DNA of 64,000 nucleotides, from the NCBI GenBank assembly GCA_001800135.1, contig MGUU01000002.1:2388-66387 (forward strand), read 5' to 3'. The position numbers and the translations under genes were made by a program. Below, one piece after another: positions 36,942 to 55,196 of the stretch. This stretch comes from Elusimicrobia bacterium RIFCSPLOWO2_02_FULL_39_32. Its GTDB lineage: Bacteria > Elusimicrobiota > Elusimicrobia > 2-02-FULL-39-32. The number at the start of each line of letters is the position of its first letter. Within the stretch, counting starts at the first letter, position 1. The notes under the pieces are model-generated. The model was not told the DNA's origin and made no database searches. It saw nothing but the letters and a program-made list of their open reading frames with translations.

Positions 36942-37665
36942 ATTTTTTATTTATGCTGTTGGGGTATTCCTAGCGGGATTCTTTGGGAATGAAAGAGTAT
37001 ATGCAGAATTTGTGATTGATCGTTTTTCTTCTCAAACCGAAAGTAACGGAATTCCCAAGGGTTGGGAAGAGCTTACATTTAAAAAAATCCCAAACCATAC
37101 CCGATATACGGTAGTTCAAGAAGGAAACAATTTTGTTCTTCAAGCGGTAAGTAGAAACTCTTCTTCCGGAATCCTAAAAAAAGTACCTCTAAATCCGAAA
37201 GATTATCCCATTCTTAAATGGCAGTGGAAAGTGGAAAATATCTTAAGCAAAGCAGACGCAAAGAAAAAGTCCGGAGACGATTATCCTGCTCGAATTTATG
37301 TGGCGTTTAAATATGACCCAACCCAAGCGAGCCTGTTAGAAAAAGCAAAATATGGGACGGTGAAAAAACTTTACGGAGAATATCCTCCTCAAGGAGCTTT
37401 AAACTACATTTGGGATAACCGGCTTCCTGTTGGAACCGCTCTGGATAACGCCTACACAGACCGGGCGAAAATGATCGTGGTAGAGAGCGGGCGAGACAAA
37501 ATAGGACAGTGGGTTTCCGAAGAAAAAAATATTTATGAAGATTACAAAAGGATATTCGGTTCCGAACCCCCGGAAATAGAATTTATTGCCGTTATGAGCG
37601 ATACCGATAACACGGAAGATTTCGCTGTGGCTTACTTTGATAACATTGTTTTGGAGAATAAATGA
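36931..37665 (+). CDS. DUF3047-family secreted protein
   Basis: Signal peptide. Conserved YPARIYVAF / NYIWDN blocks. Confidence 0.55.
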
Positions 37666-38366
37666 AAAATAAATTAAATTCCACACTTAAAGGGATCATT
37701 GTTTTTAGCGCAATAGCTCTTTTAATTGTTGCCGCAAATAAATTCAATGTTCAAGAGCTTTTAAAAAATTCTTTAGACAAAATTCAAGAGCTTGGGATAT
37801 TAGGAATAGGACTCTTTATTCTCATTTATCTTCTAGCTTGCGTTTTGTTTCTCCCGGGTTCTATTTTAACTCTGGGAGCAGGAGCGATCTTTGGTGTCAT
37901 CAAAGGTTCCGTTATTGTTTCTTTGAGTTCTACCCTTGGAGCCACTTGCACTTTTCTTATTGGAAGGTATCTTGTAAGACATTGGGTGGAATCTAAAATT
38001 GAAGGGAACCCAAAATTTAAAGCCGTGGACGAAGCTGTGGCAAAAGAGGGGTGGAAAATTGTGGGGCTCACCCGTCTATCTCCTATCTTTCCATTTAATC
38101 TGCTTAACTACGCCTATGGGGTAACCAAGGTAACGATACGGGATTATATTCTTGCATCCTGGATCGGCATGATGCCGGGAACGGTAATGTACGTTTATAT
38201 CGGTTCTCTCGCAGGAGACATAGCCACACTTGGGTCAAGAGCAACCACCGGAGCCGTGAGTTCGGTACAGTGGACAATAAGAATTATAGGATTCATTGCC
38301 ACAGTGCTTGTGACAGTTTATGTAACGCGAGTAGCCAAGAAAGCCCTCAATGAAAAAATTTCTTGA
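37662..38366 (+). CDS. DedA / TVP38-TMEM64 family membrane protein
   Basis: VLFLPGSILTLGAGAIFG motif. Confidence 0.8.
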   Translation: MKNKLNSTLKGIIVFSAIALLIVAANKFNVQELLKNSLDKIQELGILGIGLFILIYLLACVLFLPGSILTLGAGAIFGVIKGSVIVSLSSTLGATCTFLIGRYLVRHWVESKIEGNPKFKAVDEAVAKEGWKIVGLTRLSPIFPFNLLNYAYGVTKVTIRDYILASWIGMMPGTVMYVYIGSLAGDIATLGSRATTGAVSSVQWTIRIIGFIATVLVTVYVTRVAKKALNEKIS

Positions 38367-38416
38367 AAGATGGGAAATTAGTGACTGCCCCCCATTTCCT
38401 AAGGAGGAATTCGTTT

Positions 38417-39955
38417 ATGCCATTAACTAAAGATATTGTAACCATCCCCCCCATGGACAAGCACAACCAAACCCTTGTTTCCAACGTGCATCCATCCAAC
38501 TGGGAAAATCCAACCCCTACAGAAGTCTATAACTTAGTTGTGATTGGAGGAGGTACTGCCGGGCTGGTTACCGCGATTGGGGCAGCAGGTCTGGGAGCAA
38601 AGGTAGCCCTCATAGAAAAACATTTAATGGGCGGAGACTGCTTAAACGTGGGCTGCGTTCCTTCTAAGGCGATAATTCGTTCTTCCCGAGTAGTCGCAGA
38701 AATTCGTGAAGCCTCTTCCTATGGAGTCCGAGTTCCGGATGGGACCGAAGCTAACTTTGCAGCAGTCATGGAGCGGGTGCGTAAGCTCCGAGCTGGCATT
38801 AGCCACCACGACTCTGCGGAAAGATATAAAAATTTAGGTATAGATGTATTTCTTGGGGAAGCGCAATTTAAAACAAGTTATAGCGTTGAAGTAAACGGAA
38901 AAATTCTAAAATTTAAGAAGGCGGTTATTGCCACCGGAGCCAGAGCCGCTCACCCACCTATTCCGGGACTTCCAGAAGCGGGGTTTCTTACTAACGAAAC
39001 TGTTTTCAATCTTACCTCTCTACCAAAAAGATTTCTCATTGTTGGCGCAGGTCCCATCGGCTGTGAGTTAGCCCAAGCATTTAGTCGTTTAGGATCCGAA
39101 GTCCATCTTTTTGAGGCGATGCATGGATTTCTTCCCAGAGAGGATCAGGATGCGGCAGGAATTTTAAAGAATGGTTTTGATAAAGAGAAAATCCATTCCC
39201 TTTGCTGCTGCAATATTTTAAAGGTAGAAAAGCGCGGGATGGAAAAGATTGTACATTTCACGGCGAAACACGAGGGGGAAAAACCTCAAGAAATTGCGGT
39301 AGATGAAATTTTGATTGGGGTAGGACGAATTCCTAATGTAACCGGTTTGAACCTTGAAACCGTCGGAGTAAAATATGATTCGAAGTCCGGAGTTCAAACG
39401 AACGATTATCTCCAAACGACCAACCCCAACATTTATGCCGCCGGTGACATCTGTCTTAAATATAAGTTTACTCACACTGCGGATGCAACAGCTCGCATTG
39501 TGATACAAAATGCTCTTTTCTTTAACAGTAAAAAAGTAAGTTCTCTAATTGTTCCCTGGTGCACTTACACAGACCCGGAAATCGCGCACGTTGGTCTCTA
39601 TGAACAGGAAGCGAAAGAAAAGGGAATTGAAGTTGAAACTTTTACGCGTGAATTTAAAGAAGTGGACCGAGCGATCCTAGACGGAGAAACAGAAGGCTTT
39701 GTGAAAGTGCATGTAAAAAAAGGGACAGATACAATTCTGGGATCCACGATTGTTTCCCGCCACGCGGGAGACATGATTAGCGAAATCACTTTAGCGATGA
39801 CCGCAAAAGTGGGGCTAGGAACCATTGCAAACGCAATTCATCCTTACCCAACACAAGCCGAAGCGATTAAACAGGTTGCAGATGCCTACAATCGTACCCG
39901 ACTCACCCCAACCATTAAAAAAATAATTTCCAATTGGCTTGTCTGGAGAAGGTAG
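38417..39955 (+). CDS. FAD-dependent pyridine nucleotide-disulfide oxidoreductase (class I; dihydrolipoamide dehydrogenase / MerA-like core without the C-terminal Cys pair)
   Basis: GGGTAGLVTA FAD motif. Redox disulfide GGDCLNVGCVPSK. NAD motif and dimerisation domain. RBS AAGGAGG precedes the ATG at 38417. Confidence 0.8.
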   Translation: MPLTKDIVTIPPMDKHNQTLVSNVHPSNWENPTPTEVYNLVVIGGGTAGLVTAIGAAGLGAKVALIEKHLMGGDCLNVGCVPSKAIIRSSRVVAEIREASSYGVRVPDGTEANFAAVMERVRKLRAGISHHDSAERYKNLGIDVFLGEAQFKTSYSVEVNGKILKFKKAVIATGARAAHPPIPGLPEAGFLTNETVFNLTSLPKRFLIVGAGPIGCELAQAFSRLGSEVHLFEAMHGFLPREDQDAAGILKNGFDKEKIHSLCCCNILKVEKRGMEKIVHFTAKHEGEKPQEIAVDEILIGVGRIPNVTGLNLETVGVKYDSKSGVQTNDYLQTTNPNIYAAGDICLKYKFTHTADATARIVIQNALFFNSKKVSSLIVPWCTYTDPEIAHVGLYEQEAKEKGIEVETFTREFKEVDRAILDGETEGFVKVHVKKGTDTILGSTIVSRHAGDMISEITLAMTAKVGLGTIANAIHPYPTQAEAIKQVADAYNRTRLTPTIKKIISNWLVWRR

Positions 39956-41787: not shown

Positions 41788-42021
41788 ATGTCCAAACAGA
41801 ATGCCCCATACGTTATTCAGGAACAACCAGGGAAAAAAGCATGGTGTGCCTGCGGAGAATCGGAAATGCAACCCTACTGCGATGGTTCCCATGCAAGAAA
41901 AAATACAGGAAAAAAGCCTATAGTCGTTGAGATCACCGAAGCTAAAACAGTTGCATGGTGCGGCTGTAAAGAGTCAGGCAATAAACCATACTGTGATGGT
42001 ACGCATGCTAAGCTAAAATAG
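41788..42021 (+). CDS. CDGSH iron-sulfur domain protein (two CDGSH motifs)
   Basis: CACGESEMQPYCDGSH and CGCKESGNKPYCDGTH. RBS AAGGAGGAGG. Confidence 0.8.
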   Translation: MSKQNAPYVIQEQPGKKAWCACGESEMQPYCDGSHARKNTGKKPIVVEITEAKTVAWCGCKESGNKPYCDGTHAKLK

Positions 42022-42036
42022 GAAAGGAATCAAATC

Positions 42037-43059
42037 TTGTCTGAGCTAAGACAAAACTTATGCAGCAAAGAATGGGTGGTGATCGCTCCCAAAAGGAGAG
42101 AAAAGCCTAATGCTCTAAAAACAAAAATAAAGTCAGTCCCTCTTTCCACTGAATCTTATAGTTCAAAGTGCCCATTTTGTCCAAATAATGAGAAACTGTT
42201 CCCATTAGAGGAAAAGATGAGGATTCAGAATTCGAACGGGGAGTGGGTGACGAGAGTCATAGAAAATAAATATAAAATTCTGGACTCCTATGATTCTTGT
42301 CCAACTGTCACACAGCCTTTTGATAAAGAAGGAATCTACCAGAAATTAAAAGGGTGCGGCAGCCACGAACTTGTGATAGATTCTAACCGTCATGACAAAA
42401 ATATTTTGAACATGTCTCCTATAGAGATACGAAATATTCTTGAAGCTGCATTACAAAGGGCAGTTGCGCTTAAAAAAAATCCAAATAACCTCATCACCCT
42501 CATCTTTAAAAATTACGGAGCGATGTCTGGACAAACCCAACTTCATTCTCATACCCAAATTGTAGGAAGTAGGGTTGTGCCTTCCTATATTCGAACGCTC
42601 CTCCATGAAGCAGAAAAACATTTTGATTCATTTGGCAGCTGTGTTTTTTGCGATATGATTGTCTATGAAATAGGCGAGGGGGTACGCTTAATTACTCAAA
42701 ACGAAAATTATGTTTCTTTTGTCCCTTTTGCCGCTGGTACAGAACATGAAACTTGGATCTTACCTAAATTTCATGCTGCTGGCTTAGAAGAGATCGTAGA
42801 AAAAAAATTGGAGGATCTTGCGAAAATTCTACAATCTATCTTTCAACGATTTCATCAGAAGATCGAAAACCCAGATTTTAATTTTGTCATCCGATCTGCG
42901 CCTTATCCTTTATCTAACGTTCCCTACTACCATTGGCACATCCAACTCCTTCCCCGCACAAAAATCATAGGCGGATTTGAGGTTGGAACAAGAATCCAAG
43001 TGAACACGATCCTCCCGGAAGATTCAGCCAAGCTGTTGCGGGAATGCTCTCATTTCTAG
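42037..43059 (+). CDS. GalT-like HIT-family nucleotidyltransferase/phosphorylase
   Basis: CPFCPNNE zinc motif. HSHTQ in place of HPHGQ. Confidence 0.65.
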   Translation: MSELRQNLCSKEWVVIAPKRREKPNALKTKIKSVPLSTESYSSKCPFCPNNEKLFPLEEKMRIQNSNGEWVTRVIENKYKILDSYDSCPTVTQPFDKEGIYQKLKGCGSHELVIDSNRHDKNILNMSPIEIRNILEAALQRAVALKKNPNNLITLIFKNYGAMSGQTQLHSHTQIVGSRVVPSYIRTLLHEAEKHFDSFGSCVFCDMIVYEIGEGVRLITQNENYVSFVPFAAGTEHETWILPKFHAAGLEEIVEKKLEDLAKILQSIFQRFHQKIENPDFNFVIRSAPYPLSNVPYYHWHIQLLPRTKIIGGFEVGTRIQVNTILPEDSAKLLRECSHF

Positions 43060-43136: not shown

Positions 43137-43168
43137 TTGACTCTATACCATAGTATAGGGTTTATACT
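43137..43168 (+). promoter_or_regulatory. MerR-type promoter: -35 TTGACT, a 20-bp spacer containing the dyad CTATAC-CATA-GTATAG, then -10 TATACT
   Basis: The long spacer carries a perfect 6-bp inverted repeat between -35 and -10, as in MerR-family operators. It lies 24 nt upstream of the merR ATG. Confidence 0.55.
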
Positions 43169-43191: not shown

Positions 43192-43611
43192 ATGAATGAA
43201 CTAACCATTGGACAAATTGCAAAAAAGGCTGACGTAAACGTTCAAACGATCTATTTCTATGAACGTAAGAACTTAGTAACGCCCGTGAAACGAAGGGATA
43301 CGGCTATTTCTCATTCTGGTTATAGGATTTATAGTGAAGCAGAGGTTCAAAAAATCCGGTTTATTAAAAACGCGCAAGAGCTTGGATTTAGCCTAAAAGA
43401 AATTTCCGAATTACTTCACTTGCGTATTTCTACAAAAGCTCAGTGTGGTCTGGTTCAGTTAAAAGCTGAAAAAAAACTTAAAAGCATTGAGGAAAAATTG
43501 AAATCTTTAAGTCAGTTAAAAAAAGTTCTAGGAAATTTACTGAATGTTTGCAGGAATCGTAAAACTACAGATGCTTGTCCTATTTTAAAAAGTTTACAAA
43601 AAAGGAGGTGA
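43192..43611 (+). CDS. merR: MerR-family transcriptional regulator with Hg(II)-type metal-binding cysteines
   Basis: N-terminal HTH. Cys85, Cys120 and Cys129 give spacings of 35 and 9, identical to the spacing of the three metal-binding cysteines in canonical MerR. Confidence 0.85.
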   Translation: MNELTIGQIAKKADVNVQTIYFYERKNLVTPVKRRDTAISHSGYRIYSEAEVQKIRFIKNAQELGFSLKEISELLHLRISTKAQCGLVQLKAEKKLKSIEEKLKSLSQLKKVLGNLLNVCRNRKTTDACPILKSLQKRR

Positions 43612-43617
43612 AATAAA

Positions 43618-43740
43618 ATGAAACAGATCATGATAGTTCTGGGATTGCTAACCTTAGTAAGCGGAGGGATTTGGGCATATTCCACTTTAGGTAATGTTTG
43701 CTGCGGCAACCCTTCAGCGCTGTGCTGCCCTTTAAAATAA
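43618..43740 (+). CDS. Unannotated 40-aa single-TM peptide with a CC-x6-CC tail (MKQIMIVLGLLTLVSGGIWAYSTLGNVCCGNPSALCCPLK)
   Basis: AGGAGG RBS 9 nt upstream. Located between merR and merTP. Below the 60-aa cutoff of the ORF track. Confidence 0.55.
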   Translation: MKQIMIVLGLLTLVSGGIWAYSTLGNVCCGNPSALCCPLK

Positions 43741-43754
43741 GGAAGTTTTCTAAA

Positions 43755-44336
43755 ATGAAAAAAATATTTCTTGCAGCGGGAGCAGTTGTATCCTCAGCTC
43801 TGGCGTCGGTCTGTTGTCTAGGACCTATCGTTCTTTTAGGCTTAGGAGTGGGGGGTGTTGGTTTTGCGGCTGTGTTAGCAAAATATCGTCCTCTCTTTTT
43901 AGGTTTGACTTCAATTCTTTTAGGGATTGCATTCTATCTAACCTATAGAAAAAGAGAAGTTGCTTGCGAAGATGGCAGCTGTGAACTTCAATCAGGAAGT
44001 AAACCTATGAAGAGGGCTTTATGGATTGTTACAGTTGCAGCGCTTGGATTCGCTACGTTCCCCAACTGGTCCACTTTTGCTTTGAAAAGAGCTCCTCCGG
44101 TTGAGCAATCAAATATGGAAACTATTCGATTATCCATTGCCGGCATGAGCTGTACCGCCTGCGCTGTGAGCATACAGAAGTCCCTCAAGAAAGTGCCGGG
44201 CGTGGAGATTGCATCCGTAGATTTCGAAAAGTCCGAAGCTGTGGTTCAAATTCACCCGGGAAAAATCGAAAATGATGCGTTGATTCGAGCTGTTCAAACA
44301 GCCGGCAGCTATACAGCAAAAATAAAAGAGAATTAA
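43755..44336 (+). CDS. merT: MerT-MerP fusion: mercuric-ion transport membrane protein fused to an HMA metallochaperone domain
   Basis: ALASVCCLGPIVLLGLG and KYRPLFLG match MerT TM1/TM2. A second Cys pair (CEDGSC) is present. The C-terminal HMA domain carries GMSCTAC. Confidence 0.85.
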   Translation: MKKIFLAAGAVVSSALASVCCLGPIVLLGLGVGGVGFAAVLAKYRPLFLGLTSILLGIAFYLTYRKREVACEDGSCELQSGSKPMKRALWIVTVAALGFATFPNWSTFALKRAPPVEQSNMETIRLSIAGMSCTACAVSIQKSLKKVPGVEIASVDFEKSEAVVQIHPGKIENDALIRAVQTAGSYTAKIKEN

Positions 44337-44347
44337 GGAGAAACTCT

Positions 44348-44815
44348 ATGTCTCAACCCATTCAGTCTCATGAAGAATGCTGCAAGATATCAACCACTTT
44401 ATGCCCCTGCCCAGTCTGCGGGAATATGGGAAGGAGAGTGACGCCTCGAACTCTAGACAACCATGTGCCAAGCCCTTTGAGAGAATCAATAGGAGATGAT
44501 GCCACTTTCTGTACGAATCCTGACTGCAAAGTTGTTTATTGCAATCCCAAAAAGATGGTGGTTCTAAGGGGCGAAACCAAATTCCCTGTAACCATTAAGG
44601 ACTCTGGAGATGATGTGTACGTCTGCTACTGTTTCCAACATAAACGCAGAGATCTGCGGCGGGATCTTAAAGAAAAAGGAACCACAGATATTCCAGATAG
44701 AATCCGAAAGTGCGTTAAAGAGGGTATGTGCGATTGCGAACGTAAAAATCCACAGGGAGCCTGCTGTTTAGGAAACATGACTAACGCCATTAAAAGCATC
44801 CAAGAGGGACGTTAG
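44348..44815 (+). CDS. Cysteine-rich (14 Cys) putative metal-binding protein
   Basis: CC, CPCPVC, CTNPDC, CYC, CDC and ACC motifs. No recognised family. Confidence 0.55.
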   Translation: MSQPIQSHEECCKISTTLCPCPVCGNMGRRVTPRTLDNHVPSPLRESIGDDATFCTNPDCKVVYCNPKKMVVLRGETKFPVTIKDSGDDVYVCYCFQHKRRDLRRDLKEKGTTDIPDRIRKCVKEGMCDCERKNPQGACCLGNMTNAIKSIQEGR

Positions 44816-44823
44816 TTATTTAA

Positions 44824-47199
44824 GTGCAATTTTTAATAATTAAAAATCGTTTTATTTTCATAGGAGCTGTTTTTTTTGTAGGATTGTTCTGGAACTTATC
44901 TTCCAACAATCATGGAAATGGTAAAGACAATCCTGTGAAAACCAATACAGCAAACCTCCTCATTCACGAAAAAAGTCCATACCTTTTACAGCATGCCTAT
45001 AACCCAGTGAATTGGTATCCTTGGGGAGAGGACGCGTTTAAAAAAGCAAGAAAAGAAAACAAACCTATTTTTCTCTCTATTGGCTATGCAACTTGCCACT
45101 GGTGTCATGTGATGGAAAAAGAATCTTTTTCAAATCCAGAGATCGCAGCTGTGATGAACGAACACTTTGTATCCATCAAGGTGGATCGTGAAGAAAGACC
45201 GGATGTGGACAAGATTTACATGACCGCAGCTCATGCCGCAGGATGGGGAGGCGGCTGGCCTTTATCCATGTGGCTTACTCCAGAATTAAAACCATTCTTT
45301 GGTGGCACCTACTTCCCTCCCAATGAGCGCTGGGGCAATCCAGGATTTAAACAAATCTTGCTCCGACTCTCTGAACTATGGAAGACAAAACAAAAAGATA
45401 TAGCCTTAAATGCTGATCGCATGGAACAAGAATTAAAACAATATTCTCAGGTAGAGGGTAGATTTGGCGCGCTTGATACAGAATCTTTGGATAAAGGATT
45501 TGCTGCCTTTAAAGGAGACTTTGTGCCCTCTAAAGGTGGGTTTGGTGGAGCGCCGAAGTTTCCCATGCCAGTTAACCAAAACTTTCTATTGCGTACCTAT
45601 GCAAGAAGCAAGGAGAAAAAAGCGTTAGAAATGATCACGCATACGCTGCATGAAATTTCAAAAGGAGGGATCTACGACCAGATCGGTGGAGGTTTTCATC
45701 GCTATTCCACTGATGAAAACTGGCATATTCCCCACTTTGAAAAGATGCTTTATGACAATGCGCAACTGACAATGAACTATCTTGAAGCCTATCAAATCAC
45801 CAAAGAAAAAGAATTTGCCAGAATTGCCCGGGAAACTTTAGATTATATCTTGCGTGACATGACTCATAGAGAGGGAGGGTTTTATTCCGCAGAAGATGCG
45901 GATAGCCTGCCGACCGAGTTTCAGCGACAGGAGGCGTCGCAGACGCACTCAGCGAAGCAGTCCCCTTTGGGGGCTCGTCCTTTAGGAGGAAGTGCCGTCT
46001 CCAAAGATGTTATAGGCAAGCGGCCGACCGAGTTGAAAGGTAAAATTGAAGATACTAGCCATGAACATGGTTCCGAAGGCGCTTTCTATATCTGGGAAAA
46101 AAGAGAGATTATGGAAATTTTAGGAAAGGAATCTGGTGAAATCTTCAGCTACCGATATGGCGTAGAAGAGAATGGTAACGCCAAGTCCGATCCACAGGGT
46201 GAATTCATAAATAAAAACATTCTTTACCTTGCTCATTCTATTGGAGAAACAGCTAAAAAATTTGGAAAAAAAGAAGAGGAAATCCAAAAAGTTTTAGATG
46301 AATCTAGAGATAAACTTTTGTCCGTGCGTTCTAAACGTCCTAGACCACAACTGGATGATAAAATTCTAGTGGATTGGAACGGACTAATGATTTCAGCTTT
46401 TGCTAAAGCAGCTCAAGTGTTGGCTGACCCAGAATATCTAAAAGCTGCAGAGAAAGCCGCGCTTTTTCTAAAAAACCATCTCTATGATGATAAAGACAAT
46501 CGTCTTTATCATCGCTGGAGGGAAGGAGATAGAAATATTCCTGCTTTATCCTTAGATTATGCGCTTTTAACCCAAGGAGTTATTGATCTCTACGAAACAT
46601 CCCTAAATGTAGAATGGCTCATATGGGCAATTGAACTAACAGAAACAGAAATCAAACTTTTTTATGACAAAGAAAAAGGTGGATTCTTTATGACCAGTCC
46701 TGATCATGATAAGAACCTCCTTGTGCGAGCCATGGATGATACAGACAATGTTATTCCTTCAGAAAGTTCTGTGACTGCTCTTAATCTTTTGCGCTTGTCG
46801 CAATTTACTAGTCAAGAGGAGTATCGAAAAGCAGCAGAAAAAACCCTTATGCGATTTGGAGCCCAGATGAAACAACAACCCAGATCTCTCCCACAAATGT
46901 TAGTGGCCCTAGATTATGCGCTATCTAAACCAAAAGAAATTATTATAGCAGGCGATCCAAAATCAGCTGATACAATTAAAATGGTGCAGGAGGTTCATCG
47001 TCGATTTATTCCCAACAAGATCCTCATGGTTATAGATGAAGGAAAAAATCGTGAATCCCTAACTCATTTTTTACCATTTCTGGAAGGGATTAGACGTATT
47101 AAGGGGAAGTCCACAGCCTATGTCTGCATCAATTACGCCTGTGAGCTGCCAACCAATGATCTTCAAATATTGCAAAAAATATTGGATGAAAATCGCTAA
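44824..47199 (+). CDS. Thioredoxin-domain (DUF255) protein with a C-terminal six-hairpin glycosidase-like domain (YyaL/SSP411-like)
   Basis: [20 protein letters not shown] motif. Contains a low-complexity insertion. Confidence 0.8.
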
Positions 47200-47201
47200 A
47201 A

Positions 47202-47471
47202 TTATGCCGCTCGAAGATCGCTTTTAGCCTCATATAAATCTATTGCATTTTGCAGGTTCATCCAAAATTCAGGGGTTGTTTTAAGTATTTTAGACAAAAG
47301 AATCGCAGTTTCTGCAGTAACGCCTCTCTTTCCATTAATGAGGGTATTAATCCGCTGAATTGGAATATTCATTCGCCTTGCTAACTCAAGCTGGCTCATT
47401 CCCATGGGTTTAAGGAACTCAATTAAAAGTATTTCACCGGGATGAGTGGGTCTTCTCTGTTTTGGAATCAT
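47202..47471 (-). CDS. higA: HigA-family antitoxin (XRE HTH)
   Basis: HTH_XRE. Position downstream of higB. Confidence 0.8.
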   Translation of the reverse strand: MIPKQRRPTHPGEILLIEFLKPMGMSQLELARRMNIPIQRINTLINGKRGVTAETAILLSKILKTTPEFWMNLQNAIDLYEAKSDLRAA

Positions 47472-47481
47472 GTCAATTCTC

Positions 47482-47775
47482 CTAATCGTGATAATCTAAA
47501 ATTCTAACACCGTCGATATTGTTGTTCATCCATTTAAAGACAATTCGATATTGATCGTTGATTCGAATGCTATAGAATCCTTTCATGTTTCCCTTGAGGA
47601 GTTCGAGTCTGTTTCCCGGAGGAGCAAGCAAATCCTGTAAGGCATGCGCTGTATTAATCATATCAAGTTTTCTTGTAGCAACTTTCCAAAGCTGCAAAGG
47701 AATCCTTCTTGCCTCTTTAGAGTTGATTCCATGGTAGATATCTTCAGTTGTCTTGTCTCCAAAGCTCGTAATCAC
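47482..47775 (-). CDS. higB: HigB-family toxin (RelE/ParE superfamily)
   Basis: 97 aa plasmid-maintenance killer-like protein. Toxin-first order. Confidence 0.75.
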   Translation of the reverse strand: MITSFGDKTTEDIYHGINSKEARRIPLQLWKVATRKLDMINTAHALQDLLAPPGNRLELLKGNMKGFYSIRINDQYRIVFKWMNNNIDGVRILDYHD

Positions 47776-47846: not shown

Positions 47847-50800
47847 TTAGGCTTGCTGCTTATAGAGCTGGGATATTTTTTGTTCTTCATCCTTAGAAGG
47901 CGGTTCCAGTGGAACTCCTTGGATGGTCAGACGATCTCCTATAATTTCCACTCCTCGTTCCCCCTTTAAGCCCTCTGCCCAGTCTCTTAACCCTGAATTC
48001 CTTGCCCCCATCTCTATTAAGCTTAAGCTCACTTCTTCACTAATATCTAGAACTTGCGGAATCAAAATCTTGATATTCCATTCTTGAGCCTCTTTTCCTA
48101 AAAGGTTTGTCCATACCATTGAACTCTTCTCTGTGGTAACAATCCTTAAGGAGAAAGATTCGATCATGGCTATTCTCTTTAACTCAATCACCGCTTCTTC
48201 CGCGCTTTCTAAAATAGCTATTCTCCCCCTTATGCCCAATGCTTTTTCTATCTCTCCAATGGCTGCGCCATTCTTATTCACAAAAAGATACTGAACTTTC
48301 TTAAATGGATGCTTCTTTTTCTCTTCTTCAATCTGCTGAATGGTTCTTAATTGCAGTAAACGATCGTTCTCAGTCTTTGCGCTCTTAAAATCTATCAGAC
48401 AAATCTCTATCTGATTCACCTCTGCGCTCCAAAATTGAAAAACTTTATCTAGCGCAGAGGAATAAGAGAATTCGGTTTGCAATAGAAGTTCCTTAATCTT
48501 ATCTGTTGAATCCCCCAAAGCTTGGGCTACTTGTACAATTCCTTGAAGGTTAGGATTGATTCCCCTTTCAATTCCAGCAAAAGTTTTTGAAACATTCGTA
48601 AGGTAATGAACGATTACGGAAGCAGCTAAGAGTAGAGGAAATGAAATCCAGAAGGGAACAGGAATAATTAGTTGGATAATACCTAAAAGCAAGTTGATGC
48701 GAGCGATCTTTTTTGCAGATTCAAGAAATTGTGGTGGAGCACGGGAATCAAAACGATTAGCGATCCATTCTTTGTGACCTTCCACAAATACGCGCACACT
48801 AGAAAAGAAAGAGACTTGCAGCGCTACTTGAAAATTGCTCCCTGTCAAAATATAAGTTAAAAGCCCGATAGACAACGCACTCAAGCCAAAAGAGATCACA
48901 TCCTCTAACAACGCCCACTTCCGATTGTACTCCTCTAGGGTAAGATCAGGGAAGAAATGTTTTCTAAGCAACTTATATAACCATAACCAGTTGCCGCCAC
49001 CAGAAAAGTCATCAGCGTGATTAGAAGGAAATTCTCCTAATATTTGTTGTATTCTGACCGACTCTACAAGGAATGCGGCATGTGGATAGCTATTTTTAAT
49101 TTCGTCGCATATTTTTGAATAAAGATCATTTTGAGGGGTGTAAATATCAACAGAACTTACTCGCTGAGTCATCACTACATTATTGATCACATCAGCAAAA
49201 AATCTGGCTAGAATTCTCATCTCCCAAGATAAAAGGCGGGATGGAACATTAAATGAAAAAGTGTGAGTATTATCATTAGCGTGAATCAATATTGTTATTT
49301 TTTCATTTTGATCTGGAATCGCTGACTCTGTCAACCTTCTTCCCACATCCACTATGTTTCCAGACTTTTCTACAACGCTAATTGGAAGCGGGCTTCGCCT
49401 GCCATATTTTATCGCCTCATCAATCTCATGAATTTTGGTTTCTAAATCATTGAGACCATCTGGTCCCAATGTTCTAAACGACCACACGCCCAAATTTTCT
49501 GCTGGCTCAACATCTTTTAAATAATCATTCCCAACATAAACAATTTGACTGGGACTCACTCCAAGCGCTGCCAAGACCCTTTCATAAAAAATTGGTTCTG
49601 GTTTAGAGGCTTTTACCCGATCTCTGGTAATAAGAAGCGACGGATCAAAACATTCCTCAATGCCAATGATTTGCAATATTCTTTTAACCACCTCTTTGCC
49701 ACTATTAGTTGCTATCGCTAAAGTATAACCCTGTTGTTTAAGATGGTCTAAGAACTCTTTTAGCTTTGGATTAGGCTTTATCAAATCGAACGGCATATGC
49801 TTCAGTTCTCCTATTTCTTTTCCTCCCCAACTGATGCTGAATTCAAGGGATAATTGGTTGCTGCTTACCGCGCCTTTGTTTGAAAGCTCATCACTTTTAT
49901 TTTGGATTACCTCTCTGGCTGTTTCGATTGAGACATTATTTCTTTCAGCATAGGTTCGTACAAGCGCTTCCCTATACATAGCCTCGAACTCTGGAGCATG
50001 GTAAAGAGTTCCATCCAAATCAAATAAAATCAATTTAATTTTTTCATTGCTGCTGGAATGTGTGTCGGTTCTATCCTGAACTTGACCTTGCGCTTTAGTT
50101 TTTGACTCTTTTAGGAGGGCACGAACAGGAGGATGATTGGAGATACCATCAGCAAGGCTTGCTAGGATTGTGCCGCCGGCAGTGGTACGCTGAATAGCAG
50201 GGTTTAACTCGCGGCCACCCCAATCCTTTTCACGAACCTCATTCACAGCCTTGAGCATATCACCACCAACCAGAAAGACTGGAACTCCGGCTCCCCTTGC
50301 TTTCTCTAGTTTTTCTAAAAGTTGCCGTGTGGCTGTACGCCCGTCATTCCGTTCAAAAACTCCAGTACCGCCATTGGCGATAATCCAGCCATCGCCATTA
50401 TTTTTATGGCGCTCTATGATCTTATCAATCTCTACAAGTATTACATCCAGTGTCTTAGAACCAATGTCTATCGCTTTTTGCTCAATACCAATCCGATCGA
50501 CAAGTTCTGCTGTGTCCTCGTCCCGCACAATGACTCTATGATCTATAGGTAACAATAACTTCATATCGTTCTCTTGCGCTCTCTCTCTAATTTTGGAAAT
50601 AGCTTTTTCAACCTTGAGCGCCGCTTCCCCCTTTGGCAGCCTTGACTTACCTATGGACTGATCTGCCTGTTTAAGGAAAGGATATGCTAAGGCTCCTACA
50701 ACGACCATGATATCCCCAGCATGTTGTTGCCCACTCGACACATATTTGAGCAAATGTTTGTATATCTTATCTGGTTTAGTTCCTCCCCAAATAATAAGTC

Positions 50801-53800
50801 CTGCACCACGAGCTTCCGCTTCAAACTCAAGCTTTTTGTTGACTTCTTTAACAAATGAAATTCCAGCTGCCCGTGCCTCTACAGGAAAATGGTTTACCAT
50901 TCGCACTGTTGCATCCGTGTTGTGACTTTCTATCGCCTCATTAATATAAGCTGCAGGATGACCTAATGCGTTAAGAAGTCGTTCAATAAATTTGTCCTGA
51001 TCTTCAGGAATCGGCTGTGAACCAGAATAATAACTGCTCTCCTCTGGATAGAAACGGCTGTTGGGTAACATAAAGACAATCTTTTTATTTTGATATACCT
51101 TACGCGCAGATTCAATGGCAGCGGGAATTGCGTCAATATCTTCTGGAAGCATAACGATTCCAGCGTCAATGCCTATTTCCATCATACGCTTTTCGGCTAT
51201 TGGAAGCACTCTTCTTTCAACATCAAACTTCTCTCGCGTAACGGAATCATCAAGCTCTTCTTTACTGGGTCGTCCAAGATGGGTACAGATAAAAAGTTCG
51301 TCAAATTTTTCTAAGGCACTTTTAACGGTTTCCACAGTCTGCACGATCTTTGTATCCCCATCTCCCGGATCCTCTCCAATATCCCAGTTAATCTTGAGAA
51401 ATGCAGATATCCCATCAGGTAAATCCTCTATGGTTCGTATTGCCCCGGACTGATCAGATGATGTAAGAAAAATCTTTTCTGATTCTGGAGCTGGAGACGG
51501 TTCGTATGCGTCACCTCCGCCACTGCTTGTGCCAGATATTTGATGAGGACCATGATCCTTTGGTAAATTCTTGTCTAACCCCCGACTCTTTATTTCATTC
51601 TGATAATTCATCCGCCCTAAAGTGAGCGCCATGGAAATCTTAAGATTGACATCTTTTGTTTCATTCAGCCATTCAATAAGCATATCCTTATTGAATAAAT
51701 AATTCCCGCGTTCCGTTTGTATAACTTCAAATTCATCCCACGCGGGCACAATATTTCGTACTTCTAAAACTTGATCTTCACGATCCTTGAATAATTTTTC
51801 AGATTCATGGATGATGGACTCTTCAATGGATTCACCCTTAGTCTTAGCCAAAAATTCTGGACCCCACTTAGGTTTTACAAGTTCCTTAGCGGAAATTTTT
51901 CCGGTTTCCGCTAGATTTAAATTGTTATCTGCGGCATTAGCAGTGCTATTTTCTTGAAACCGCCTCATGAGATACTTGAGCGCCTTCTCGATTCCTCCCT
52001 TGATGACAAAAGGCACATAAGAATAGACGCGGGGAAGAGCCTTATCTTCTCCCCAAAAAAATCTAAAAATTTCCTGAAGAGCTCGTTTCAAATTTTCCGT
52101 CATTCCAAACAAGGATTGAAATTCCAAATGTTGTGGATCCACATCCAATTTCTTTGCCCACAATAGAGCGCTTACAATAGTTCTCGCATCATGACTGGCG
52201 ATCCCGATTCTTTGGATGAGTTTATGTTTTCTAAATAATAGTCGCACTATTTCCAAATAGTTTTCGTCGGTTTTCCAATTTCCCATCCAAACAGGAATTG
52301 GATCACCACGCTCTTCTGCATCGCGAACCTCCTGCGAATGATAAGCTCCCTTAACAGGACGGATGGCGATAGGCATTGGATCCTCAGGATCCTTTTCCAT
52401 CCAGTTTATGAGCCCCTCAACTTCAGCCAATGAATCTACAAAATAGGCTTGTACCACCATCCCGACGTCCGGAATACGCCTGCCGTTTTCTCGCACCATC
52501 TTCAAATTTGGATCTAACTGATTTTCAAGCTCTTCCAGAACAGTCTGGATTACTTCATTAGCAACATCACGATAAATGTACTCTTCTTTATCAACCCAGA
52601 CAATTGCTCCCATCTGTCCTGCTCTTTTAACTTCACGCACTTTTGCCACTATCTTTTTGTAATTCTGAACAGCCAAATTGAATCCTTCTCTTCTCACAGA
52701 TTCAACTTCACTATCCAGCCAACTTTGCGGTGTAAGATTAGTTACCTTTGAGGAAATATTAGGTTCTAGACCATAGGACGCCATTTTTTCAATAAGATCC
52801 ACACAAGCTTGAGCATTTTCCATAGCTTCTTGTTCCGTATGAATTCCTTCACCCAAAATGTCTGCTATAGATAAAACAGGTCTGGACTCGGACTTCCCAT
52901 CTCTTACAACCCGTATCCCTTTAGCCGCCATTTCTCGTATAACTTTTTCTACCGCCTTTTCTTGTGAGAGATTTTTCATGGATTTAAGTGCTTCATCCTC
53001 AGTGTCTCCCACAATATACTGCGCTGTCATAAAAAACAATAACTTGCGCAGCCATTCCTTAAAAATTTCCGGTGTCCTATCAGACTGGATGATTTTATCA
53101 GCCAAATCTACACTCCCAGTTAAGAGTTTTGCAAACCAAGGGGTGGGGTACATTTTTAAAATGAACTTTGTGATTCCGTTTCTTAAGAGCTCTAGTACAT
53201 TTAAGTTCCGTTCTCTTTCTTGTCGGATTAATTTGGATGCTTCCACGAGTCTTTCTGTCTCACGAACGATTTCAGACTCCGGTATTCCCCATCCGCTATT
53301 ATCCTCTTCTATCTCGTCTCCATTTTGGAAATGCGTTTGGGGTTTACTAGGTTGAAAACGGGGACGTTTCACATTTCCCTCTAAATTAGAAACGTCCTTG
53401 TTTTTCCTTAATATGTCACTCAAGTCTGTTGGGCCCAGAGCAAAAAATAGATTGGCGAGGATCGCCGCAACTGCTGTAGGTATGGTTAGCCAGTGAAATC
53501 CAGCCACTGCAAAGATGGCCACAGCCGCAACTAAATTTGCATAAATGCCTGAACTTCCATGAGCTCCCGGAACTGTTAAGCGAAAACCCAAAACCTTTTG
53601 CAAACCCGGCGGCCAATCATCAAAAGCAATCACGCCTTTTGTGTCAAACTTGGGCCAACTCCATTCTTTAAATGGTTTTTTCCAGTTGACCTCAATCATG
53701 TGGCCAACCTCATTGATAACAATGGCAAGAAAAACAGCGGAAATTGCGCTGCCCCAAAGAGAATTAGCGTCAACTACAATGCCGAAAAATCCTGCTAAAA

Positions 53801-55196
53801 CGATCGCGGATAGATAAGTAACGACTGGAACAACAAATGGAAGAGCAATTAGATCGCTCGCATTTTCCAAATGAGCTTTGTCCGGATCATATTCGCCGAT
53901 CACTCTCATATTGACCCGTGTGGGATCTACTAAGATTTCTGATAATTTATCATGGGATCCTTTAGAGTAAAGATATTCTTTTACAATTCCTCTAATCCCC
54001 CATTTCTCTATATCAAGCGATTTAAAAGTTTCATTAAACGATATGAGTTCGAACAAATGCTGGATTGGATCCCAAGCTAACCAAGTAACCGGGGCGGGAG
54101 GATTACTTTTTTCATCGAACCATTGCCGACGAAAATGCTCTACAACCCTTTCCCTCCCAATTTTCAATACTTCTTTTAGCGATCCATAAAAGGTTCTTTC
54201 TAATATTTGCCCTGGCACAAGAGGGTGTCTCCTACTCCCAAAATGGTAAGCCACAACTCTTTCCCCACGATACAAGCGATTAAGCAATTCCTCTTCTGAT
54301 TTAATCTCTTCCATTCTAATTAATGGAGCGCTGGCAAGTGATTCCTGGGGTATGGATTTAAGAGATAGTTCGACTTCATAAAGATACGCCGCTTTAAATG
54401 CCCGCGGATAAAAAAATATAGAACGTGCCCGTGAGAGAGGAGTTCTCACATTAGGTGAAAGTTCTGGAGACATGTTAGAATTAAGTGAGGTGTCTCCAAT
54501 CTTTCTACCGCCTGACTTGCCATCTTTCTTTCTTCCAGACATTGCGGATAAATGTGGACTTAAAACATTATCTTTTTTCTGTCTAAAGATGTTGGCTAAT
54601 GAGGAGGTTTTGGATCGGCTCTTCCTATTCATGGTCATTGCAACATAGAACTTACGCGCTTTTTTAACGCGTCGGTTCATGAGATTAGATAAATCAATGT
54701 TAACAGGTATAAGAGACGGGGTTTTCAAAAAAATCTGTCTCAAAAGTTCTAAGCTGTCTTCCCAATCTTGAGAGATCTTCTCTTCAACTTTGTAATAGCA
54801 TTGTACCGCGTAATCTAAAACTGTTTCAAAAATCTTCACTGATTTTTCACGGATCAGATCAAATTCCTCTTTTGCATTATTCAGAATAGAGTTAGAAAAT
54901 CCCATATTTCGGTCTAATGGCTGGAGATTAGAATTTTGAGGAATATATTTGTTAAGCACTACTTGCTGTTCCGTCGGTGATTTTACAGAAAGAGGTCTTC
55001 CCCGAAATTGAAAACTCTCGGCTTTGGAGGAAGAAGTTTGTTTGGCTTGGGCAAAGGGCGGGAGGATAATAGAAATCAACAAAGCGCCGACAACGACGAG
55101 CGCGGTGCTCTGTTTAAAAAACCTGATGATTTTTTTATTCCAAAAGTTGTGCATATCACGAACGCGCATTACGCGTATATAAAAATAATTATACAA
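47847..55196 (-). CDS. Giant (2449 aa) multidomain protein. Domain order: signal peptide, Ser/Lys-rich low complexity, TM bundle, proline-dehydrogenase-like TIM barrel, phosphoglycerate-kinase-like domain, HAD phosphatase, TM segments, C-terminal domain.
   Basis: Uninterrupted ORF. Signal peptide MHNFWNKKIIRFFKQSTALVVVGALLISIILPPFAQA, so the probable start is the internal ATG near 55154. PRODH signatures: RPVKGAY and YVPFVIKGGIEKALKYLMRRFQEN. PGK-like motifs: ICTHLGRPSKEE, NSRFYPEE, IANGGTGVFER, GGDMLKAV. HAD motif I: LILFDLDGTLY, followed by the YVGND motif. Confidence 0.8.
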   Translation of the reverse strand: MYNYFYIRVMRVRDMHNFWNKKIIRFFKQSTALVVVGALLISIILPPFAQAKQTSSSKAESFQFRGRPLSVKSPTEQQVVLNKYIPQNSNLQPLDRNMGFSNSILNNAKEEFDLIREKSVKIFETVLDYAVQCYYKVEEKISQDWEDSLELLRQIFLKTPSLIPVNIDLSNLMNRRVKKARKFYVAMTMNRKSRSKTSSLANIFRQKKDNVLSPHLSAMSGRKKDGKSGGRKIGDTSLNSNMSPELSPNVRTPLSRARSIFFYPRAFKAAYLYEVELSLKSIPQESLASAPLIRMEEIKSEEELLNRLYRGERVVAYHFGSRRHPLVPGQILERTFYGSLKEVLKIGRERVVEHFRRQWFDEKSNPPAPVTWLAWDPIQHLFELISFNETFKSLDIEKWGIRGIVKEYLYSKGSHDKLSEILVDPTRVNMRVIGEYDPDKAHLENASDLIALPFVVPVVTYLSAIVLAGFFGIVVDANSLWGSAISAVFLAIVINEVGHMIEVNWKKPFKEWSWPKFDTKGVIAFDDWPPGLQKVLGFRLTVPGAHGSSGIYANLVAAVAIFAVAGFHWLTIPTAVAAILANLFFALGPTDLSDILRKNKDVSNLEGNVKRPRFQPSKPQTHFQNGDEIEEDNSGWGIPESEIVRETERLVEASKLIRQERERNLNVLELLRNGITKFILKMYPTPWFAKLLTGSVDLADKIIQSDRTPEIFKEWLRKLLFFMTAQYIVGDTEDEALKSMKNLSQEKAVEKVIREMAAKGIRVVRDGKSESRPVLSIADILGEGIHTEQEAMENAQACVDLIEKMASYGLEPNISSKVTNLTPQSWLDSEVESVRREGFNLAVQNYKKIVAKVREVKRAGQMGAIVWVDKEEYIYRDVANEVIQTVLEELENQLDPNLKMVRENGRRIPDVGMVVQAYFVDSLAEVEGLINWMEKDPEDPMPIAIRPVKGAYHSQEVRDAEERGDPIPVWMGNWKTDENYLEIVRLLFRKHKLIQRIGIASHDARTIVSALLWAKKLDVDPQHLEFQSLFGMTENLKRALQEIFRFFWGEDKALPRVYSYVPFVIKGGIEKALKYLMRRFQENSTANAADNNLNLAETGKISAKELVKPKWGPEFLAKTKGESIEESIIHESEKLFKDREDQVLEVRNIVPAWDEFEVIQTERGNYLFNKDMLIEWLNETKDVNLKISMALTLGRMNYQNEIKSRGLDKNLPKDHGPHQISGTSSGGGDAYEPSPAPESEKIFLTSSDQSGAIRTIEDLPDGISAFLKINWDIGEDPGDGDTKIVQTVETVKSALEKFDELFICTHLGRPSKEELDDSVTREKFDVERRVLPIAEKRMMEIGIDAGIVMLPEDIDAIPAAIESARKVYQNKKIVFMLPNSRFYPEESSYYSGSQPIPEDQDKFIERLLNALGHPAAYINEAIESHNTDATVRMVNHFPVEARAAGISFVKEVNKKLEFEAEARGAGLIIWGGTKPDKIYKHLLKYVSSGQQHAGDIMVVVGALAYPFLKQADQSIGKSRLPKGEAALKVEKAISKIRERAQENDMKLLLPIDHRVIVRDEDTAELVDRIGIEQKAIDIGSKTLDVILVEIDKIIERHKNNGDGWIIANGGTGVFERNDGRTATRQLLEKLEKARGAGVPVFLVGGDMLKAVNEVREKDWGGRELNPAIQRTTAGGTILASLADGISNHPPVRALLKESKTKAQGQVQDRTDTHSSSNEKIKLILFDLDGTLYHAPEFEAMYREALVRTYAERNNVSIETAREVIQNKSDELSNKGAVSSNQLSLEFSISWGGKEIGELKHMPFDLIKPNPKLKEFLDHLKQQGYTLAIATNSGKEVVKRILQIIGIEECFDPSLLITRDRVKASKPEPIFYERVLAALGVSPSQIVYVGNDYLKDVEPAENLGVWSFRTLGPDGLNDLETKIHEIDEAIKYGRRSPLPISVVEKSGNIVDVGRRLTESAIPDQNEKITILIHANDNTHTFSFNVPSRLLSWEMRILARFFADVINNVVMTQRVSSVDIYTPQNDLYSKICDEIKNSYPHAAFLVESVRIQQILGEFPSNHADDFSGGGNWLWLYKLLRKHFFPDLTLEEYNRKWALLEDVISFGLSALSIGLLTYILTGSNFQVALQVSFFSSVRVFVEGHKEWIANRFDSRAPPQFLESAKKIARINLLLGIIQLIIPVPFWISFPLLLAASVIVHYLTNVSKTFAGIERGINPNLQGIVQVAQALGDSTDKIKELLLQTEFSYSSALDKVFQFWSAEVNQIEICLIDFKSAKTENDRLLQLRTIQQIEEEKKKHPFKKVQYLFVNKNGAAIGEIEKALGIRGRIAILESAEEAVIELKRIAMIESFSLRIVTTEKSSMVWTNLLGKEAQEWNIKILIPQVLDISEEVSLSLIEMGARNSGLRDWAEGLKGERGVEIIGDRLTIQGVPLEPPSKDEEQKISQLYKQQA

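Follow-up and report, generated by a model that had tools for sequence, protein, structure and literature searches.

A CopZ N-terminal-domain protein with a vicinal cysteine pair as a candidate cytoplasmic partner of MerT in a mer-like operon of an Elusimicrobia bacterium

What could be the task of a small protein in which almost every tenth residue is a cysteine (Cys), encoded in an operon that has a MerR-type regulator, MerT and MerP but lacks the reductase MerA? This question is raised by an open reading frame (ORF) for a protein of 155 amino acids (aa), located at 44348-44815 (+) in a 64,000-nucleotide stretch of DNA from Elusimicrobia bacterium RIFCSPLOWO2_02_FULL_39_32 (hereafter the window). 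An earlier interpretation, made from the letters alone and referred to here as the sequence-only reading, had found no family for the protein and had suggested a metallochaperone, a metal sink, or a redox partner replacing MerA. The present analysis places the protein in the family of the CopZ N-terminal domain, and a comparison of loci from many species links its relatives to the transporter MerT.

Family membership and cysteine positions

The ORF boundaries given by the sequence-only reading are exact, with an ATG start, an AAGGAG Shine-Dalgarno sequence 7 nucleotides (nt) upstream and a TAG stop. All motifs that it had listed are present, namely CC (residues 11-12), CPCPVCG (19-25), C-x4-C (55-60), CYC (93-95), CDC (128-130) and ACC (138-140), and the gene indeed lies between merTP (43755-44336) and a gene for a thioredoxin-fold protein, which is the DUF255 gene at 44824-47199. 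The number of Cys residues is 15 instead of the 14 that had been counted (residues 11, 12, 19, 21, 24, 55, 60, 65, 93, 95, 122, 128, 130, 139, and 140; C65 and C122 complete the tally). This amounts to 9.7% of the protein, as compared to 1.02% in the 43 other long ORFs of the window (binomial P = 9e-11).

The view that no match could be assigned was wrong, since curated Pfam and NCBIfam models as well as a solved structure all match the protein. Pfam PF18423 (zf_CopZ) covers residues 21-73 with 49.5 bits (cutoff 28.4), and NCBIfam NF047645 (CopZ_Nterm_CC), annotated as a "putative iron-sulfur cluster-binding metallochaperone", covers residues 9-144, the cutoff being passed narrowly (103.1 bits, cutoff 100). 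The sole sequence match in the PDB is 2HU9, the N-terminal domain of CopZ from Archaeoglobus fulgidus (AF0346; Sazinsky et al. 2007, as cited in PMC7558416; E = 1.8e-12, residues 20-142). An AlphaFold2 model of the protein, computed with 57 homologs as input, has a predicted local distance difference test score (pLDDT) of 87.5 and a predicted template modelling score (pTM) of 0.78, and is uncertain only in the first ~19 residues (pLDDT 48-58). A Foldseek comparison of this model with the PDB, which the sequence-only reading had proposed as a check, again led to the family: 2hu9_B ranked first (E = 4.4e-8; template modelling score 0.81 by target and 0.68 by query), followed only by weak matches to the [2Fe-2S] ferredoxin Bfd (6E6R and 4E6K; probability ~0.3). 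The 120 close homologs stem mainly from metagenome-assembled genomes (MAGs) of Elusimicrobia, the nearest being 89% identical, and in databases the nearest ones already carry the name "(2Fe-2S)-binding protein" or "copper chaperone CopZ family protein". All criteria that could be tested thus make the 155-aa protein a CC-subtype member of the CopZ N-terminal-domain family (PF18423 / NF047645 / cd10141), with the eponymous CC present and an identical architecture; the function of the family itself is annotated as putative.

The exclusions made by the sequence-only reading (MerB, MerC, ArsD, and HMA) stand, as Pfam gives none of these for the 155-aa protein. It is not MerA, not an HMA protein and not a metallothionein. 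No HMA domain (PF00403) was found in it by Pfam at E <= 1, and the chain stops 15 residues past the cluster motif; the ferredoxin-like HMA fold with GMxCxxC, as in NmerA and MerP, is absent, and the modelled fold is that of 2HU9. Instead of a metallothionein-like chain, the model is ordered, with conserved Cys at cofactor sites and three Cys that are not conserved. With the A. fulgidus domain, the protein shares the fold and all nine Cys, although identity is only about 30%. It differs by its N-terminal CC arm, by an additional invariant Cys near the cluster (C128) and by its place in a mer-like operon, whereas A. fulgidus CopZ has a C-terminal HMA domain that binds Cu(I) and a role in copper handling. 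A copper chaperone of the A. fulgidus type was considered and rejected because there is no HMA domain and no CopA context (no P-type ATPase in the scanned ORFs). The NCBIfam family NF045877 (Csac_0668 family, CopZ_Nterm_CU) has the same layout and matches residues 10-149, but with Cys in place of selenocysteine (Sec) and a score of 64.8 bits (cutoff 190), the 155-aa protein is not a member. The likeness to Bfd (PF04324) is a weak fold similarity of the C-terminal half that lies below significance for the 155-aa protein, with weak Fer2_BFD matches in six of its relatives; Bfd itself functions in iron release and lacks both the zinc ribbon and the CC arm.

To which Cys residues functions may be ascribed was assessed from their conservation in an alignment of 57 homologs (A2), and from a residue alignment to 2HU9 combined with the ligand roles ascribed to the residues of that structure. 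All nine Cys of 2HU9 are aligned with Cys of the 155-aa protein: C21, C24, C55, and C60 correspond to C4, C7, C38, and C43, and C93, C95, C130, C139, and C140 to C75, C77, C109, C118, and C119. In 2HU9, C4, C7, C38, and C43 reportedly bind zinc, and C75, C77, C109, and C119 a [2Fe-2S] cluster. On this basis, residues 21-60 (44408-44527, +) would form a zinc-ribbon subdomain with C21/C24/C55/C60, in agreement with the zf_CopZ match, and residues 93-140 (44624-44767, +) a BFD-like [2Fe-2S] subdomain that contains C93/C95/C128/C130/C139/C140. They are preceded by the vicinal pair Cys11-Cys12 (codons at 44378-44383, +) on a disordered N-terminal arm with the consensus H-E-A-C-C. Among the 57 homologs, C55, C60, C93, C95, C128, C130, and C140 are invariant, and C11, C12, C21, C24, and C139 are conserved in at least 90%. 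Conservation across homologs, another check put forward by the sequence-only reading, therefore holds for 12 of the 15 Cys and fails for three: C19 is replaced by Ala or Tyr in many relatives, C65 by Phe in A. fulgidus as well as in many relatives, and at the position of C122, which occurs in the window protein alone, all other aligned sequences have Gly. The 12 conserved Cys are candidates for a function, with four putative zinc ligands, four putative cluster ligands, two extra thiols predicted to lie beside the cluster (C128 and C139) and the pair C11-C12.

A CC on a terminal tail or linker is a near-universal trait of the relatives, being N-terminal in most of the 80 loci described below and located in a C-terminal extension or linker in those without an N-terminal CC. 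Two Sec forms of the cd10141 family, with the motifs "CU" and "GxUC", are described in a review of selenoproteins (PMC13188914). Judged by these motifs, they map most simply to C11-C12 and G137-A-C139-C140, and C12 and C139 would therefore be reactive rather than structural residues. In the 80 loci, neither the CC nor the GxCC positions showed a TGA (Sec) codon.

The mer-like operon and the linkage to MerT

The operon that contains the gene (here referred to as copZNT) is mer-like. It starts with a MerR-type promoter/operator at 43137-43168 (+), read from the sequence as TTGACT (43137-43142), a 20-nt spacer and TATACT (43163-43168), with the perfect dyad CTATAC-CATA-GTATAG at 43143-43158 inside the spacer. 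An overlong spacer with a dyad operator is a hallmark of MerR-activated promoters. A terminator-like match at 43139-43162 was rejected, as it is this operator dyad. The promoter/operator stretch is also found in L001, a locus from an Elusimicrobia groundwater MAG (GCA_016180425.1) that is collinear with the window and 83-94% identical to it, and 29 of 40 related loci, from several phyla, have a promoter of this architecture in front of merR. The merR-family gene (43192-43611, +) encodes a regulator of 139 aa with the Pfam domains MerR_1 and MerR-DNA-bind; among the NCBIfam models, TIGR02051 MerR ranks first, ahead of ZntR, CadR, and CueR, but with 123 bits it stays below its cutoff of 150.85. 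The regulator has exactly three Cys (Cys85/Cys120/Cys129) with spacings of 35 and 9, the same as those of C82/C117/C126 in Tn501 MerR. The product of merTP (43755-44336, +) is a fusion of MerT (Pfam, 59.2 bits) to a C-terminal MerP-like HMA domain (43.2 bits), with 106.6 bits for the NCBIfam model MerTP_fusion, below its cutoff of 180. It has a CC in the first transmembrane segment (TM1; C20, C21), a Cys pair in the cytoplasmic loop (C71, C76) and the HMA motif GMSCTAC (C133/C136). The genes lie 6-14 nt apart, and no intervening terminator was found. Regulator, operator, MerT, and MerP of a mer operon are thus present, while MerA is missing from the operon.

Relatives in other genomes were located by a pattern scan with one genome per species, which gave 258 loci, and the best 80 were analysed; MerT or MerR was regarded as adjacent when it lay within 1.5 kb of the family gene. 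Of the 80 species loci, 45 have MerT next to this gene, 39 have MerR, and 56 have at least one of the two. In the Elusimicrobia-type loci, MerT and MerR are each adjacent in 25 out of 28, and the usual order is merR-merTP-copZNT. Downstream, the MerT-linked loci continue with varied genes, e.g., for TonB receptors, ECF sigma factors, HMA proteins, and methyltransferases, and neither MerA nor MerB nor a P-type ATPase is among the 25 commonest Pfam families in the three genes downstream of the 45 loci.

The linkage extends to the level of the polypeptide. An exhaustive profile search yielded 1,997 clusters (50% identity) at E <= 1e-3 and 1,223 at E <= 1e-10. A length of more than 215 aa is reached by 48 proteins among the top 150 clusters; 31 of these 48 contain MerT, 21 an HMA domain and one MerB. 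Single polypeptides with the order CopZNT-MerT-HMA are encoded in L038, L050, and L051, the linker of the latter two containing an acidic CC motif. In protein P0128 the CopZ-NT domain precedes TM1 of MerT, and in P0179 it is inserted into the cytoplasmic loop between TM2 and TM3, flanked by QDCC and SDCC, at the site that the cytoplasmic Cys pair occupies in canonical MerT. Protein P0234 consists of an N-terminal extension, CopZ-NT, and then the alkylmercury lyase MerB. All fusion topologies place the CopZ-NT domain on the cytoplasmic face of MerT. A phylogenetic profile against merT, which the sequence-only reading had also suggested, is hence strongly positive, by adjacency (45/80 loci) as well as by fusion (31/150 top clusters). 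The CC-type members are a large group (1,223 clusters) that is tied to MerT by operon order, MerR-type operators and repeated fusions, and occasionally linked to MerA and MerB too. This comparison of genomes shows the CC-type protein to be a conserved, putatively cytoplasmic partner of MerT, usually in operons lacking MerA. A publication describing the MerT-CopZNT pairing was not found in a literature search. As a separate observation, L048 encodes a CopZ-NT domain fused to a Cys-rich domain that appears YHS/TRASH-like when judged by eye.

No MerA, MerB or P-type ATPase was found in the ORFs scanned across the 64-kb window, and true MerA occurs within +/-6 kb of the family gene in three of the 80 loci, most loci having no MerA nearby. 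In these three, the MerA and CopZ-NT(CC) genes stand side by side (L030, 3646-5671; L060, 502-2694; L025, 3265-6492), with the order merR-merTP-merA-copZNT in L030. The three MerA proteins score above the TIGR02053 cutoff (465-531 bits, cutoff 454), and have a C-terminal CC and no NmerA/HMA domain. The window contains, at 37662-39955 (+), translationally coupled genes for a VTT/DedA membrane protein and a MerA-like flavin adenine dinucleotide (FAD) oxidoreductase (NF004991), an inferred candidate for a downstream partner. The flavoprotein (38363-39955; NF004991, 828 bits), the only one in the window, has a CxxxxC site but neither an NmerA domain nor the C-terminal Cys pair. It was rejected as a MerA because this Cys pair is missing and because it reaches 390 bits for TIGR02053 (cutoff 454). 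The VTT/DedA and flavoprotein genes are found within 6 kb of the family gene in seven of the 80 species, occur together in L010, L026, L029, L031, L048, and L051 as well as in the window, and directly abut the module in two distant phyla, in L048 (Planctomycetota) and L051 (Limisphaerales). In the Elusimicrobia loci L026 and L031, ECF sigma/anti-sigma (zf-HC2) genes lie between the pair and the module, with a sigma match only in L029. The NF004991 flavoprotein may rely in trans on the CC arm of the CopZ-NT protein.

A proposed path for Hg(II) and its alternatives

On balance, it is considered reasonably probable that the stand-alone CopZ-NT protein, with its zinc ribbon, [2Fe-2S] cluster, and CC arm, acts in the cytoplasm as the dedicated acceptor for MerT. 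The family, the conservation of the ligand Cys, the disordered CC arm, the MerR-type operator and the linkage and fusion to MerT were observed in this analysis; from these we infer Hg(II) as the substrate, the steps and order of its transfer, and its fate. The protein is taken to be cytoplasmic because it has no signal peptide and because all fusions are cytoplasmic. Hg(II) is the most likely metal, since a MerR-type sensor and operator, MerT and MerP, a MerB fusion, and adjacency to MerA all point to it. In the proposed sequence of events, merTP and copZNT would be co-transcribed from the MerR-controlled promoter, and Hg(II) would first be captured by the CxxC of the periplasmic HMA domain, then move to the CC pair in TM1 of MerT and next to the cytoplasmic-loop Cys pair. 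The disordered Cys11-Cys12 arm would take Hg(II) off the cytoplasmic thiols of MerT and dock it beside the [2Fe-2S] site, near the extra conserved thiols C128 and C139. From there, the metal could be reduced via the cluster or be passed to a flavoprotein reductase, which would be true MerA in the loci that have it and perhaps the NF004991 enzyme in the window. Hand-off to a flavoprotein reductase is favoured because the gene is kept beside MerA enzymes that lack NmerA, while cluster-mediated reduction is kept in consideration since MerA is absent from most loci and the A. fulgidus domain has Cu(II)-reducing activity. Pure sequestration and thiol-redox maintenance are less likely.

In this scheme, the 155-aa protein would correspond in function to NmerA and to the C-terminal CC arm of MerA, as a cytoplasmic dithiol that takes Hg(II) from MerT to a redox centre. 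The fold of NmerA is unrelated, and the 155-aa protein carries predicted zinc and Fe-S cofactor sites. The metallochaperone guess of the sequence-only reading had the right direction, in line with the family annotation as a putative Fe-S metallochaperone.

Several observations weigh against a role as an Hg(II) acceptor of MerT. There are 22 loci among the 80 (e.g., in Paenibacillus and Cohnella) that have neither MerT nor MerR and in which no recurring neighbour family was found, and therefore the family is not exclusively coupled to MerT, about a third being not linked to it. As the 64-kb window has no MerA, the endpoint of the relay lacks an assigned reductase here. The regulator and the transporter both score below the NCBIfam cutoffs for MerR and MerTP, so that the inducing metal is not proven. 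Moreover, an Fe-S protein is an unusual carrier of mercury, as exposed Fe-S clusters are damaged by Hg(II). Lastly, the CC-type members are biochemically uncharacterised, and the sole characterised relative handles copper, not mercury: in A. fulgidus CopZ, the [2Fe-2S] domain mediates Cu(II) reduction (PMC7558416).

This activity also lends some support to an alternative that is regarded as unlikely, namely, that the protein is a self-sufficient, MerA-independent mercuric reductase whose cluster, recharged by ferredoxin or another donor, reduces Hg(II) held by the CC arm and the cluster-proximal thiols, so that the merR-merTP-X module detoxifies mercury alone. By canonical mer logic, import of Hg(II) under a MerR-type activator would be sensible only with intracellular detoxification, and MerA is both rare near the family gene and, like MerB, not among the commonest downstream families. 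The presence of Sec in relatives, at the arm and beside the cluster, is typical of redox-active sites (PMC13188914). The retention of the gene beside true MerA in L030, L060, and L025 nevertheless suggests a helper rather than a substitute, and the conversion of Hg(II) to Hg(0) takes two electrons, whereas a [2Fe-2S] cluster supplies one. MerA could furthermore sit elsewhere in these genomes, and a MerA-like flavoprotein recurs nearby. A redox partner replacing MerA, as had been guessed from the sequence, is thus a possible role that is weakened by the three loci with a neighbouring MerA. In its general form, this alternative would see in merR-merT(P)-copZNT(CC) a self-contained, flavin-independent mercury detoxification system in which the Zn/[2Fe-2S] protein accepts Hg(II) from MerT on its CC arm and reduces it with low-potential electrons, an improbable proposal for a module that is widespread in uncultured, apparently mostly anaerobic phyla (e.g., Elusimicrobia, Planctomycetota, Ignavibacteria, Chlorobi, and Verrucomicrobia).

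The protein could also be a chaperone for copper or another soft metal and a cupric reductase like A. fulgidus CopZ, with the transporter and regulator serving Cu, Ag, Au or Cd. This is judged quite improbable: it has in its favour that Cu(II) reduction is the only biochemistry of the fold (PMC7558416), that close homologs bear the GenBank name "copper chaperone CopZ family protein", and that ZntR, CadR, and CueR are not far behind in the scores of a regulator that, like MerTP, falls short of its equivalog cutoff; yet the protein has no HMA domain, a P-type Cu-ATPase is absent from the window and from the 25 commonest downstream Pfam families, and family members are fused to MerB and found beside true MerA. 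The regulator, in addition, has the three-Cys arrangement of an Hg-responsive MerR and not the two-Cys pattern of CueR. A very unlikely role is the maintenance of thiols, in which an Fe-S-dependent disulfide or selenenylsulfide reductase, comparable in its logic to ferredoxin:thioredoxin reductase, would keep the Cys of MerT or Hg-thiol adducts reduced. A CC or CU on a flexible arm by a redox cofactor does recall the GCUG arm of thioredoxin reductase, and thioredoxin, DsbD, and peroxiredoxin genes occur near the family gene in some loci, but conservation of these neighbours is inconsistent, with 2-3 members for each. Metal hand-off fits better than redox maintenance, since MerT specifically is the fusion partner and, in P0179, the CC motifs take the place of the metal-relay Cys pair of the loop. 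The lowest probability of all is given to a metallothionein-like sink that would sequester the imported metal on many thiols, which was the least supported guess of the sequence-only reading. It could account for the Cys share of 9.7% and for an operon without an obvious downstream enzyme, but the model has two ordered subdomains in which conserved Cys occupy the cofactor-ligand positions of 2HU9, free thiols number at most about four, and selection for thiol number is unlikely because three Cys are not conserved.

The identity of the protein is ordinary, as the family has a crystal structure and is covered by models in Pfam, NCBIfam, and CDD, yet the biology of the family is almost unstudied, the literature being one paper on a single archaeal, copper-linked protein. 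The candidate role of the 155-aa protein in mercury transport, as a widespread Fe-S accessory, makes it worth an experiment. If the protein accepts Hg(II) from MerT as proposed, an Fe-S protein joins the mer gene repertoire and offers a candidate explanation for how Hg(II) is handled by NmerA-less MerA enzymes or in MerA-less operons. The 155-aa protein is also a concrete candidate for merA-independent mercury reduction and, if the module reduces Hg(II) itself, would be the long-sought enzyme of merA-independent Hg(II) reduction. The names that refer to a "copper chaperone" are probably misleading when metagenomes are annotated for mercury cycling.

Other genes of the operon and its surroundings

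A 40-aa ORF with a hydrophobic N-terminus and the tail CCGNPSALCCPLK lies between merR and merTP (43618-43740, +), preceded by a strong Shine-Dalgarno sequence, AGGAGGTG. It probably encodes a small accessory membrane or exported Cys peptide, the hydrophobic N-terminus reading as a transmembrane helix or a signal peptide, and may be a MerE/MerF-like mini metal-relay peptide. A conserved relative (…CCGNPSAPCCPLKR) is encoded just 3' of the copZNT gene in another mer-like locus (L015, 3519-3653). In the closest relative, L001, the ORF is missing together with a segment of ~116 bp, and a search of the 40-aa peptide against 5.8 billion proteins returned itself alone.

The last gene of the co-directional cluster (44824-47199, +) encodes a DUF255/Thioredox_DsbH protein of 791 aa with an N-terminal hydrophobic segment (PF03190, 255 bits). 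It was rejected as a functional partner of the 155-aa protein, since just 3 of the 80 species loci have DUF255 at a distance of up to 6 kb from the family gene, and in L001 the two are 6.4 kb apart. Compared with L001 (8456-14900), the window lacks at 44816-44829 a 6.4-kb block of 10 genes between copZNT and DUF255, which includes genes for an HMA protein (176 aa), an unknown protein of 314 aa, DsrE, AhpC/Redoxin, a transglutaminase-core protein, DsbD_TM, and thioredoxin. The presence or absence of this block indicates that the tail of the operon is plastic and that the adjacency of DUF255 is secondary. The merTP-copZNT segment (43739-44802) is 83% identical to L001 at the nucleotide level as compared to 92-94% for the flanks (merR, galT-like, and DUF255), which suggests recombination or faster evolution of these two genes.

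Directly upstream of the mer-like operon, genes are located for a two-repeat CDGSH iron-sulfur protein of 77 aa (41788-42021, +) and a GalT/HIT-like nucleotidyltransferase (42037-43059, +); these are syntenic in L001 and present in only one of the 80 species loci. On the other side, a HigB-like toxin (97 aa) and an HTH_3 antitoxin (89 aa) are encoded at 47202-47775 (-), converging on the end of the DUF255 gene. They are followed by a 2,449-aa ORF (47847-55196, -), an odd multi-enzyme fusion with several hydrophobic stretches and with proline dehydrogenase (769-1086), phosphoglycerate kinase (1281-1658), and HAD hydrolase (1720-1904) domains. Further upstream, at 30450-32966 (+), the window encodes an 838-aa fusion of a radical-SAM domain and a Methyltransf_31-type methyltransferase, and Methyltransf_31 proteins are also encoded downstream of three MerT-linked loci.

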